Shown here: one piece after another, positions 25,470 through 28,800 of the stretch | Layout: the number at the start of each line of letters is the position of its first letter | Numbering within the stretch: position 1 is the stretch's first letter | Source: Escherichia coli | GTDB taxonomy: Bacteria; Pseudomonadota; Gammaproteobacteria; Enterobacterales; Enterobacteriaceae | Assembly (NCBI RefSeq): GCF_009931435.1 | Contig: NZ_CP043414.1 | Strand: one strand, 5' to 3' | Length of the DNA: 64,000 nt | Translations under genes and position numbers: made by a program | Notes under the pieces: model-generated | Databases searched by the model: none | What the model was told of the DNA's origin: nothing | The model's input: only the letters and a program-made list of their open reading frames with translations

Positions 25470-26753
25470 TTAGTCTTTAGCTGTTGCATTTTGTTTATGA
25501 AATAGTTCACGGAACACCGGATAAATATCATCCTGGTCGCGGATATGCTGCATCGCAAAATTGTCGAAAGTAGATTGCAGATGTTCATATTCTCGCCACA
25601 GTGTCTGATGAGCGCGACGGGTAATTTCGATATAGCTGTAATAACGAACAACGGGCAATAATTTTTTCGCCAGGATTTCATGGCAAAGTGGAGAGTCATC
25701 GGCCCAGTTATCGCCGTCCGATGCTTGTGCCGCGTAAATATTCCATTGCGCCGGGTTATAACGCTCTTTCACCACCTCATCCATCAGTTTCAGGGCGCTG
25801 GAAACAATGGTACCGCCAGTTTCCTGTGAGTAGAAAAACTCATGTTCATCGACTTCTTTCGCCTGGGTATGGTGCCGGATGTAAACGACTTCCACGTTCT
25901 TATACGTTCTGCTAAGGAACAGATACAGCAGAATATAAAAACGCTTAGCCATATCTTTAGTGGACTGATCCATTGAACCCGAAACGTCCATCAGGCAAAA
26001 CATCACTGCCTGGCTGGAGGGATCGGGTCGTTTTTCGTAGTTCTTGTAACGTAAATCGAAGGTGTCAATAAAAGGGACGCGTTCAATTTTGGCACGTAAT
26101 TCTGCAATTTCTTTGCGCAGACGTTCCTCTTCCAGTAGTTGCGCAGGCTCACTGTTGCTGATGATGGCCAAATTCTCTTCCAGCGCATGAAGTTCCCGCC
26201 GCTTGCCCGCCGTCATGGCTGTGCGTCGCGCCAGTGAGTTCTGCAATGAACGCACAACGCTGATATTGGCAGGAACGCCGTTAGCGGTATAACCCGCCCG
26301 ATGCGTTTTATATTCGGTCAGCTGGCGTTGTTGGTTTTGTTTCAGATTCGGTAAGGCCAAATCTTCAAAGAGCAGATCAAGATACTCATCTTTCGAAATC
26401 TGAAAGACAAATTCATCCTGACCTTCACCATCCTGGCTGGCCTGGCCCTGACCACTGCCGGAACCACCGCCGCCGCCCTGGGGGCGTTCAATGCGGTCAT
26501 TCTGGACGAAATGGTCATTGCCCGGATGAACGCGGTGGCGCAGGCCGCCACGTCCCTGATGAAACATCGGTTCGCTAATATCTTCCGTTGGAATGGATAC
26601 GGACTCGCCGCTGTCGACGTCAGTCACCGAACGCTTATTAATGGCCTCGGAGATCGACTGTTTAATTTGCGCTTTATAACGGCGTAAAAAACGCTGGCGA
26701 TTCACCATGCTTTTGTTTTTGCCGTTCAGACGCCGGTCAATAAACCAGGTCAT
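25470..26753 (-). CDS. yeaH: DUF444 protein YeaH
   Basis: 427-aa ORF with glycine-rich segment [11 protein letters not shown]; downstream of yeaG. Confidence 0.85.
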
Positions 26754-26865
26754 ATGCCCCCCGTACTACATTTGCCAACTGTTTGCTACGCCTGTGTTGC
26801 CGCTTCTCTGGCCCACGGTTCGCTGTCGTTGTAGGCCCGGTAGCATGCGTACCGGGCCATGGTTG

Positions 26866-28800
26866 TTAAGACGATTTACGTACGCGCAAATACCATTCGC
26901 ACAGTAAACGCACCTGTTTACGGGTGTAGCCTTTTTCCATCATACGGTCGACAAAATCGTCGTGTTTCTTCTGCTCGTCGGTTGACGTTTTGGCGTTAAA
27001 CGAAATAACCGGCAACAGCTCCTCGGTATTAGAGAACATTTTCTTCTCAATAACCGTGCGCAGTTTTTCATAGCTGGTCCAGTTCGGATTGCGTCCGCTG
27101 TTATTCGCTCTGGCGCGCAGTACGAAGTTGACAATCTCGTTGCGGAAATCTTTTGGATTACTGATCCCCGCCGGTTTCTCAATTTTCTCCAGCTCAGCGT
27201 TGAGAGATTCGCGGTCAAATAGCTGCCCGGTATCCGGGTCGCGATACTCCTGATCCTGAATCCAGAAATCTGCATACGTGACATAACGGTCAAAAATGTT
27301 TTGTCCATATTCAGAATAGGATTCAAGATACGCAGTCTGAATCTCTTTACCGATAAACTCAGCATATTTCGGAATCAAGTAACCTTTCAGGAACTCGAGA
27401 TAACGCTCAGCCTGCTCCTGAGGGAACTGCTCGCGCTCGATCTGCTGTTCCAGGACGTAGAACAGATGAACAGGGTTTGCTGCCACTTCCACGTGGTCGA
27501 AGTTGAACACGCGAGAGAGGATCTTAAACGCAAAACGCGTGGACAGACCGTTCATCCCTTCATCAACGCCTGCGTAGTCACGATATTCCTGATACGACTT
27601 GGCTTTCGGATCGGTGTCTTTCAGACTTTCGCCATCATAAACCCGCATCTTCGAATAAATGCTGGAGTTTTCCGGCTCTTTCAGACGCGAAAGAATGGAA
27701 AAACGAGACAGCGTTTCCAGCGTGCCAGGTGCGCATGGGGCGTGAGTCAGTTCACTGTGATTAAGCAATTTCTCGTAGATTTTGATCTCTTCGGAAATAC
27801 GCAAGCAATATGGCACCTTCACGATATAAACACGATCGAGGAAGGCTTCGTTGTTCTTGTTATTACGGAAAGTGACCCATTCGGATTCGTTCGAATGGGC
27901 GAGAATAATCCCGTTAAACGGCAGGGCGGAGATACCTTCCGTCCCGTTGTAGTTACCTTCCTGAGTGGCGGTTAACAGGGGATGCAGCACTTTAATCGGT
28001 GCTTTAAACATCTCGACAAACTCCATGATCCCCTGGTTGGCGCGGCATAGTGCACCGGAATATCCGTAGGCGTCCGGATCGTTCTGCGCGTAGTGTTCGA
28101 GTTTACGGATATCGACTTTCCCTACCAGCGCTGAGATGTCCTGGTTGTTCTCATCGCCAGGTTCCGTTTTGGCGATAGCAATTTGTTGCAGAATTGACGG
28201 CCAGACCTTTACCACCCGGAACTTAGTAATATCGCCACCAAATTCATGCAGGCGTTTTGCTGCCCACGGCGACATGATGGTGCCAAGATAGCGTCGAGGA
28301 ATGCCATACTCTTTTTCCAGAATCTGCGCATCTTCTTGCGGATTGAAAAGACAGAACGGATGATCGTTGACCGGGCTCCGCTCACCGTTAGCGCTTAATA
28401 CATAGATCGGCACGAGCTGCATTAATGATTTCAGTCGCTCAGCAAGCGATGATTTACCCCCACCCACAGGCCCCAGCAGATACAGGATTTGTTTCTTCTC
28501 CTCCAGCCCCTGAGCCGCGTGTTTCAGATAAGAGACAATCTGTTCAATCGCGTCTTCCATGCCGTAAAACTCTTCAAAGGCCGGGTAACGTGCAATGACC
28601 CGGTTAGAAAAGAGTCGAGAAAGTCTGGGTTCCTGGGCTGTATCGACCATGACAGGCTCACCGATAGCCATCAATAGCCGCTCAGCCGCGTTGGCATAAG
28701 CACTGCGATCTTGCCGACAAGTGGTAAGAAACTCCTGCAGTGTGAACTCTTCGTCCTTGGCAGCTTCATATCGCTGGCGATAGTGATCGAATATATTCAT
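26866..28800 (-). CDS. yeaG: PrkA-family serine protein kinase YeaG
   Basis: 644-aa ORF; Walker A LLGPVGGGKSSL. Confidence 0.9.
   Translation of the reverse strand: MNIFDHYRQRYEAAKDEEFTLQEFLTTCRQDRSAYANAAERLLMAIGEPVMVDTAQEPRLSRLFSNRVIARYPAFEEFYGMEDAIEQIVSYLKHAAQGLEEKKQILYLLGPVGGGKSSLAERLKSLMQLVPIYVLSANGERSPVNDHPFCLFNPQEDAQILEKEYGIPRRYLGTIMSPWAAKRLHEFGGDITKFRVVKVWPSILQQIAIAKTEPGDENNQDISALVGKVDIRKLEHYAQNDPDAYGYSGALCRANQGIMEFVEMFKAPIKVLHPLLTATQEGNYNGTEGISALPFNGIILAHSNESEWVTFRNNKNNEAFLDRVYIVKVPYCLRISEEIKIYEKLLNHSELTHAPCAPGTLETLSRFSILSRLKEPENSSIYSKMRVYDGESLKDTDPKAKSYQEYRDYAGVDEGMNGLSTRFAFKILSRVFNFDHVEVAANPVHLFYVLEQQIEREQFPQEQAERYLEFLKGYLIPKYAEFIGKEIQTAYLESYSEYGQNIFDRYVTYADFWIQDQEYRDPDTGQLFDRESLNAELEKIEKPAGISNPKDFRNEIVNFVLRARANNSGRNPNWTSYEKLRTVIEKKMFSNTEELLPVISFNAKTSTDEQKKHDDFVDRMMEKGYTRKQVRLLCEWYLRVRKSS

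Follow-up and report, generated by a model that had tools for sequence, protein, structure and literature searches.

What do the two products of the yeaG-yeaH operon of Escherichia coli do, and is the first of them the kinase that its RefSeq product name ('protein kinase YeaG') makes of it? We addressed this question for the gene pair at positions 25470 to 28800 of a 64,000-nucleotide stretch of an E. coli genome (contig NZ_CP043414.1; hereafter the window). That the locus is the chromosomal yeaG-yeaH operon, in identity as well as in operon structure, is almost certain. The explanation as a whole, in which identity and structure are taken together with a mechanism that would make YeaG an AAA+ ATPase and YeaH its von Willebrand factor A (vWA) adaptor, we regard as probable. 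The operon itself is already known, yeaGH being treated as one transcription unit in published work (PMC4664914, PMC10954441), and as a feature of the genome it is an ordinary part of the E. coli core.

Identity of the yeaG-yeaH locus

Both genes are encoded on the minus strand. yeaG (26866..28800) specifies a protein of 644 amino acids of the PrkA family, identical to YeaG of E. coli K-12, and is followed, after an intercistronic spacer of 112 bp (26754..26865, minus strand), by yeaH (25470..26753), which specifies 427 amino acids of the DUF444/UPF0229 family. The spacer holds a hairpin and, before the yeaH ATG, a G-rich ribosome-binding region (ACGGGGGG); upstream of yeaG lies a divergent intergenic region of 435 bp (28801..29235). 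In a preliminary description of the window, made from its letters alone, the same positions, length of YeaG, gap and upstream region had been given, and all of these agree with ours. Its assignment of the two proteins to the PrkA and DUF444 families was likewise confirmed by matches far beyond chance. YeaG matched the Pfam models AAA_PrkA (1.3e-187, 623.5 bits) and PrkA C-terminal (8.7e-71, 239 bits; cut-offs 25 for both) and the NCBIfam model PRK15455 (1342 bits, cut-off 576), which places it in the PrkA family, and YeaH matched DUF444 over its full length (4.2e-191, 636 bits, cut-off 27) and NF003708 (843 bits, cut-off 466), which places it in the YeaH/YhbH family. The model of sporulation YhbH, TIGR02877, scored 238 bits on YeaH, below its equivalog cut-off of 468, and YeaH is thus homologous to YhbH without being its equivalog. 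Of 5426 complete E. coli genomes, all but one (5425) matched a 4-kb region that includes the pair, with the annotations yeaG, yeaH, mipA and cdgI, and RefSeq gives the same genes, the same lengths and the same spacers of 112 and 435 bp in the best-matching genome and in K-12 MG1655. Induction in stationary phase and during nitrogen starvation, which had also been ascribed to the pair, agrees with published work (PMC4664914, PMC10954441, PMC4066584, bioRxiv 10.1101/072470).

YeaH as a predicted vWA protein

YeaH has been described in published work as a protein without similarity to known proteins, sequence searches of the PDB with YeaH and SpoVR gave nothing meaningful, and no paper linking YeaH or DUF444 to the vWA fold or its metal ion-dependent adhesion site (MIDAS) was found in the literature searched. 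Judged by its predicted structure, YeaH is a vWA protein with a complete and invariant MIDAS metal site. An AlphaFold2 model, for which 114 homologues (37-59% identity) were aligned, reached a mean predicted local distance difference test (pLDDT) score of 86.5, with values of 94-98 across the C-terminal domain, and a Foldseek search with this model returned 72 PDB matches at E<=0.001 that identify the vWA alpha/beta fold and include vWA proteins with AAA+ partners (midasin/Rea1, NorD of the NorQ-NorD pair, and Rpn10 of the proteasome). The MIDAS residues D256, S258, S260, T315 and D346 are invariant in the 114 homologues, and the DxSxS motif is present in each of 121 YeaH representatives. A vWA domain with an invariant MIDAS, encoded next to a P-loop protein, suggests an AAA+/vWA machine. 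Some annotators of phage genomes label YeaH homologues as vWA, and domain databases may already group them in the same way.

In its layout the protein begins with N-terminal helices, continues with a disordered linker rich in Gly, Ser and acidic residues (~91-112) and a helical hairpin (166-224), and ends with the vWA domain. The preliminary description had reported a low-complexity Gly/Ser-rich insert; the stretch is indeed present, at residues 94-112, but it is a disordered linker found throughout the family rather than an insert. Between the conserved D86 and D113, E. coli has 26 residues where the median for the family is 23 (range 17-30), the Gly plus Ser content of the segment is similar (0.50, with 0.41 in the family), and the Gly/Ser-rich stretch, modelled at low confidence, also occurs in the YhbH-like forms of ~390 amino acids, which are shorter because of a deletion of ~38 residues in the helical hairpin (~185-222). 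At the other extreme of size are the long representatives P0161 (728 amino acids), P0213 (729 amino acids), P0179 (643 amino acids) and P0133, P0148, P0171 and P0254 (511-553 amino acids); such representatives match over two separate segments and may contain large insertions or be fusions.

YeaG as a probable AAA+ ATPase

YeaG is most probably an AAA+ ATPase, and its C-terminal domain is predicted to be wholly helical. The AAA_PrkA domain occupies residues 19-380, and the C-terminal PrkA domain (residues 382-636), which contains K426, was modelled by AlphaFold2 as all-helical with pLDDT values of 83-96. The Walker A motif GPVGGGKSS, already noticed in the preliminary description, lies at residues 110-118 and is, with K116, invariant in 44 sequences, as expected of a P-loop. 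Residues K116, R232, Y382 and K426 are all found at these positions in the YeaG of the window; the variants K116A, R232A, K426A and Y382stop fail to complement, K116A is inactive in vivo, and yeaG, yeaH and double mutants share one common phenotype (PMC4664914). All 50 PDB neighbours listed by Foldseek for the model of the whole protein were AAA+ proteins, mostly unfoldases of the classic clade; Lon, FtsH, HslU and ClpA are among the 50. The densest block of invariant residues is found at 213-294 (window ~27919-28164, minus strand; EPGDxNNQD, GKxDIR, YSG, GxxEFVEMFKxPxK and ATQ) and includes a candidate Walker B motif, IMEFVE263 (invariant E260 and E263), which falls in a segment modelled with pLDDT <50.

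The only solved homologue is a 692-residue protein deposited as 'Serine protein kinase' (PDB 9xip/9xiq/9xir), for which no paper was found in the literature searched. It aligns with residues 78-603 of YeaG (E 7.5e-51) and is a distant homologue, in which the Walker A motif and the GIxEFxE block are conserved.

Proposed mechanism and its rivals

The genes for YeaG, YeaH and the unlinked YcgB (a SpoVR protein) are known to give the same phenotypes, and the module formed by their products slows metabolism in starvation (published). Together the three form one functional module, for which the genetics are published, and we propose that it works like other AAA+/vWA pairs: the MIDAS face of YeaH would act as an adaptor that would either hold the target or dock on the YeaG ring, while ATP hydrolysis by YeaG would remodel the target and thereby quiet metabolism in starvation; direct Ser/Thr phosphotransfer by YeaG would not be needed. 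To this AAA+/vWA-adaptor mechanism our analysis of both proteins gives an even chance. A likeness to the MoxR-type pairs speaks for it. We scanned gene linkage in one genome per species, taking the best 80 loci, all of them from Gammaproteobacteria, and in all 79 informative loci a YeaG homologue is directly upstream of yeaH, so that an adjacent, co-oriented gene for a vWA-MIDAS protein is present each time; the comparison of yeaGH linkage that the preliminary description had recommended came out, for Gammaproteobacteria, in favour of a conserved pair.

Several observations weigh against the mechanism. Compared with the MoxR/vWA pairs (RavA-ViaA, NorQ-NorD, CbbQ-CbbO, BchI-BchD) and with midasin/Rea1, YeaG belongs to a family of its own, AAA_PrkA, and not to MoxR: it scored 18.1 bits against AAA_5 (cut-off 22) over 27 residues of the P-loop, its link to AAA_5/Mg_chelatase being this sub-threshold match only, and YeaG carries an additional C-terminal domain, all-helical in the model, while SpoVR joins its system as a third partner. 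AAA+ proteins match the model of YeaG weakly (best E 4e-3), and the conserved block 213-294 is the worst modelled part of the protein (pLDDT <50 at 213-228, 250-261 and 265-294), perhaps because it takes up its fold only on oligomerisation or on binding a partner. Beyond these, there are biochemical and genetic results that would fit a kinase. If YeaG were a genuine Ser/Thr protein kinase, YeaH and YcgB would be upstream regulators or downstream targets in phosphorylation signalling. In the places where this work is cited (PMC9512850, bioRxiv 10.1101/072470), E. coli YeaG autophosphorylates and phosphorylates casein in vitro, with AceA as a substrate; the failure of K426A to complement (PMC4664914) fits a catalytic lysine, the truncation Y382stop, equally non-complementing (PMC4664914), also counts for a kinase, and the RefSeq name, the gene name and most papers on E. 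coli assume one. K426 is invariant and stands in a VAIK-like motif (FAFK), which YeaG shares with Hanks-type Ser/Thr kinases along with the published phosphorylation in vitro; a single motif alone is not diagnostic, and within a helical domain an invariant lysine can have functions other than catalysis. Unlike the Hanks-type kinases, YeaG has no Gly-rich loop (GxGxxG), HRD, [HY]xDxKxxN, D[FLY]G (DFG) or APE motif in residues 381-644, no match to a Pkinase-type Pfam family even at E<=10 and, in the all-helical model of its C-terminal domain, no beta-rich N-lobe; the top 50 structural neighbours of the whole-protein model include no kinase, and purified PrkA of Bacillus subtilis and B. anthracis was without kinase activity (PMC9512850, PMC13001217). 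We therefore consider a kinase unlikely. The label 'PrkA-type kinase' used in the preliminary description stands as far as membership of the PrkA family is concerned, whereas a Hanks-type kinase is unsupported by sequence and fold, and 'kinase' is a weak label, best taken as a historical name.

A second rival, which we consider very improbable, was proposed for B. subtilis PrkA and would make YeaG a Lon-like, ATP-dependent protease that degrades regulators in starvation. B. subtilis PrkA hydrolysed casein in an ATP-dependent manner while showing no kinase activity (PMC9512850), YeaG has a weak sequence match to a fragment of Lon (4ypn, E 0.0066), and the proteolytic AAA+ machines named above are among its structural neighbours. 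The match to 4ypn is, however, limited to the P-loop/Walker A region (residues 74-127), YeaG matches neither Lon_C nor a Lon protease domain nor any other peptidase family of Pfam, and carefully purified B. anthracis PrkA had neither kinase nor protease activity, a trace of the latter being lost once a contaminating hydrolase was removed; its authors suggest a contaminant as the explanation for the B. subtilis result too (PMC13001217). These contradictory reports on homologues agree with the remark in the preliminary description that the biochemical role is incompletely defined, and the view of an AAA+ motor with a MIDAS adaptor offers a testable handle on the conflict between kinase, protease and ATPase activities.

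Carried further, the AAA+/vWA-adaptor reading would make YeaG/YeaH/YcgB an unclassified three-part remodelling machine (AAA+, vWA-MIDAS and SpoVR) rather than a kinase cascade, a machine that might impose metabolic quiescence and that phages might carry as a module for host takeover; to this wider proposal we give somewhat less than an even chance. If it is true, the module would correspond in function to the MoxR-vWA chaperones, though built on another AAA+ lineage, and would be sufficiently self-contained for phages (podovirus-like contigs, jumbo phages and megaphages) to carry it. The module governs how cells go into starvation-induced quiescence and how they leave it, which bears on persistence. 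It is very widely distributed and strongly conserved, and the interest that remains lies in its biochemistry.

Promoters and the 5' untranslated region of yeaG

The region upstream of yeaG is bounded by the divergent neighbour mipA (29236..29982, plus strand). For the transcription of yeaGH two promoters have been described, one dependent on RpoS and the other on RpoN (PMC10954441), dependence of yeaG on NtrC and sigma-54 has been reported (PMC4664914, PMC4066584), and chromatin immunoprecipitation sequencing (ChIP-seq) has located NtrC binding upstream of yeaG (PMC4066584). The scan of 28801..29235 for RpoS and NtrC sites, which the preliminary description had recommended, recovered a sigmaS-type -10 element and a sigma-54 element but no canonical NtrC palindrome. 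The sigma-54 -24/-12 element, TGGCATGAGAGTTGCT (28904..28919, minus strand), has one mismatch to TGGCAC-N5-TTGCW at the correct spacing; it predicts a start near 28894 and a 5' untranslated region (UTR) of ~94 nt, in agreement with the -93 boundary of a published fusion of the 5' UTR to green fluorescent protein (PMC10954441). With at most one mismatch, the element is kept in 16 sequences of Enterobacterales (15 loci and the window), from Escherichia to Dickeya, Erwinia and Serratia, at a distance of 81-113 nt 5' of the ATG (except for Brenneria, where it is 226 nt). The yeaG upstream regions of Vibrio, Shewanella, Pseudoalteromonas and Colwellia lack it, and among the loci compared it is thus confined to Enterobacterales. 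Across the 64-kb window the pattern was found 6 times against 3.9 expected, which is not above chance, and the argument for this promoter is therefore drawn from where it lies and how well it is conserved.

The sigmaS extended -10 consensus is KCTAYRCTTAA, and its sole exact match within the window is TCTACGCTTAA (28966..28976, minus strand), a candidate for the second promoter ~56 nt upstream of the sigma-54 element. Its core, CTAYRCTT, occurs at a conserved position in 15 of the 24 enterobacterial upstream regions, and this sequence evidence would place the sigmaS-type promoter at 28966-28976. Farther upstream is a conserved distal block, TTGATATGCCATTGAAA (29013..29029, minus strand), a candidate activator site that is present in 13 of the 24 regions. 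Ten loci have this block as well as the -10, and in 9 of them the block lies exactly 54 nt upstream of the -10 (52 nt in Erwinia). The distal block is unlike the NtrC palindrome. A palindrome of the form TGCACC-N5-GGTGCA with at most three mismatches was not found in 28801-29235, and its window-wide count equals chance, which speaks against direct activation by NtrC from a canonical site; NtrC might instead use a non-canonical site, or the ChIP-seq signal might reflect contact through looping. The conserved blocks at 29013-29029 and 28977-29000 may be such non-canonical NtrC sites.

Existence of the two promoters and binding of NtrC being published, it is their placement at the coordinates given here that we infer. 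In the arrangement proposed, yeaG and yeaH are transcribed together, as a single mRNA, from a tandem pair of promoters within the region of 435 bp; the sigma-54 promoter (28904-28919), activated by NtrC, would serve nitrogen starvation, and the sigmaS-type promoter upstream of it (-10 at 28966-28976) stationary phase and other stresses. The mRNA would end at a terminator after yeaH.

The 5' UTR is also a target of the small RNA SdsR, which pairs with positions -31 to -22, as validated by compensatory mutation (PMC10954441). In the window the pairing site is CCTGTGCTAA (28822..28831, minus strand), which is conserved across Enterobacterales, and the Shine-Dalgarno sequence AAGGA (28810..28814, minus strand) is invariant in an alignment of 13 enterobacterial sequences. 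SdsR lowers YeaG and YeaH with the mRNA level unchanged, and both proteins rise in an sdsR mutant, though SdsR pairs only with the yeaG 5' UTR (PMC10954441). Its pairing lowers translation late in starvation, as published. The 5' UTR does not fold better than its shuffles (z = -0.15), and no riboswitch-like or leader structure is claimed. An open reading frame (ORF) of 75 codons that overlaps the regulatory region (28797..29024, minus strand) was rejected as a gene because its start lies upstream of both inferred promoters and its ATG is not in frame in other genera.

Co-transcription and the intercistronic hairpin

The preliminary description depended on yeaH being co-transcribed with yeaG. 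A search of the sense strand in the gap between the genes and close to it gave no sigma-70-like promoter, which leaves an independent yeaH promoter unsupported, and a U-tract terminator is likewise missing from the gap: the hairpin tail on the sense strand is TACAACGA, with a single T, and the terminator scan flagged this hairpin on the antisense strand only. The only intrinsic terminator with a U-tract follows yeaH instead (25437..25465, minus strand; a stem of 11 pairs and then the T-run TTTTT). Co-transcription is further supported by the short gaps in relatives, by the published phenotypes that the genes share and by the joint effect of SdsR.

The hairpin itself, GGCCCGGTA-cgcatgc-TACCGGGCC (26834..26858, minus strand), begins 7 nt after the yeaG stop codon and has a perfect, GC-rich stem of 9 bp. 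Most likely it is a recurrent but dispensable element that would serve as a barrier to 3'-exonucleases or as a processing site, and not as an operon boundary; a stem-loop without a U-tract in this position might set the ratio of YeaG to YeaH. A stem as long and perfect was found in none of 300 dinucleotide shuffles. The two differences from K-12 within the hairpin are both in the loop, and in E. albertii a hairpin of -18 kcal/mol is retained through G-U changes. Since the perfect-stem test under-called hairpins with bulges or G-U pairs, a test of local energy was added; by this test, relatives repeatedly have strong hairpins here, though their sequences are unrelated: of the 38 gaps that measure 55 nt or more, 24 fold locally better than 95% of their own shuffles. 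Other results weigh against a regulatory role. The local energy of the window's hairpin (-18 kcal/mol, z = -1.4) was equalled by 8 of 100 shuffles, the region of 131 nt around the gap folds as a whole no better than shuffles (z = +0.53), as was the case for the 5' UTR, and in many relatives the yeaG-yeaH gap is just 3-30 nt and leaves no room for any hairpin. These results would fit a hairpin without regulatory role, that is, a REP-like or incidental GC-rich palindrome, such as intergenic DNA of enterobacteria commonly has, or a weak partial terminator, and the hairpin end GGCCTAC is reminiscent of REP ends. We give this possibility about one chance in three, set against it being the stem that shuffling did not reproduce, the recurrence of unrelated hairpins in long gaps, the confinement of the K-12 differences to the loop and the hairpin energy held in E. 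albertii.

Linkage to SpoVR and evolution of the operon

The genes yeaG, yeaH and ycgB show conserved cofitness in six bacteria and form one operon in most bacteria, which is split in E. coli (bioRxiv 10.1101/072470). Our linkage scan agrees with this: in ~50 non-enterobacterial loci a gene of ~510 codons with the Pfam domains SpoVR and SpoVR_C begins within a few bases after yeaH, whereas no copy of SpoVR (ycgB) was found in the 64-kb window, nor within 7 kb in most of the Enterobacterales loci scanned. The distance from yeaH to SpoVR is 1.8 kb in Brenneria and 4.7-6.5 kb in Pantoea and Edwardsiella (loci L026, L021, L027 and L039), and in Escherichia, Citrobacter, Enterobacter, Serratia and Erwinia (L002-L025) SpoVR is more than 7 kb away or elsewhere. 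Within Enterobacterales, the operon of three genes seems to have been dismantled step by step. The prkA-yhbH-spoVR module known elsewhere, also on distant metagenomic contigs, has the same two families in the same order with SpoVR directly after them, and differs from the locus of E. coli and most other Enterobacterales in that here ycgB is detached and a sigma-54 promoter confined to this order is present.

YeaG is 81-88% identical to its orthologues in Vibrio, Shewanella and Colwellia, where YeaH is only 62-75% identical; for the copies of YeaG on phage contigs and on uncharacterised metagenomic contigs the identity is 48-70%. In the loci of the eight most distant YeaH representatives, the three families occur together wherever the flanks are informative. 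A permuted order, DUF444-PrkA-SpoVR, was seen once (L089:267-5468), followed by genes for an EF-hand protein and an extracytoplasmic function (ECF) sigma factor. In three of the loci a small ORF lies directly upstream of the DUF444 gene (L085:5811-5999, 62 amino acids; L086:1356-1730, 124 amino acids; L088:878-1093, 71 amino acids); that of L085 sits between PrkA and DUF444, at the position of the hairpin spacer in E. coli, and in L086 and L088 the gene farther upstream has no Pfam assignment on record.

Copies in phage genomes

The PrkA-DUF444-SpoVR triad was also found inside phage genomes (L083:4076-8743, L085:3892-8735 and L087:1985-6801). That of L087 corresponds to ORFs 30-28 of Ralstonia phage RsoM2USA, and the triad also occurs in a jumbo phage of 344 kb; two triad contigs are podovirus-like, with a T7-type primase-helicase, DNA polymerase A and phage endonuclease I. 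YeaH homologues are present in 'uncultured phage' records of 595-642 kb; in total, 23 phage records match YeaH, and each of the three proteins has its own PHROG family. The defence-system models of PADLOC gave no real match. In the 30.8-kb record of Enterobacter phage LAU1 (MN688132.1, 2025-3305), a yeaH annotated as such is 93% identical to E. coli YeaH, and this record may represent captured host DNA or may not be a true phage.

Comparison with K-12 and other features of the window

Genes, gene order, lengths, the gap of 112 bp and the upstream region of 435 bp are all shared with yeaGH of E. coli K-12 (b1783-b1784). The YeaG proteins are 100% identical, with zero amino-acid differences despite ~92 nucleotide substitutions (nucleotide identity 95.25%, a difference at 4.75% of positions). 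YeaH is 99.8% identical in protein, with the one change G427D, and 96.7% identical in nucleotides. The gap between the genes has five substitutions, the variation being synonymous or neutral only, and in the upstream region the 244 nt adjoining the yeaG ATG are identical, with six differences farther upstream. Over 25300-29300, identity of at least 99% was reached in 17 of the 5425 matching E. coli genomes (95-99% in the remainder), which suggests that the window comes from a less-sampled lineage of E. coli; the best matches to the locus are strains 2017-02-2CC and RMDEC465.

The next gene after yeaH is cdgI (yeaI; 23848..25323, minus strand), which encodes a MASE4-GGDEF protein annotated in K-12 as a putative c-di-GMP binding protein and not as an active cyclase. 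Between 24500 and 25500, in the 5' half of cdgI and the yeaH-cdgI spacer, the G+C content falls to 0.34-0.37, compared with ~0.50 in yeaGH. An Rfam search of the whole window gave no match in the yeaGH locus, and elsewhere it identified sroD (7383-7468, plus strand, 115 bits) and ES036/CssrF (62883-62925, minus strand, 42.9 bits).

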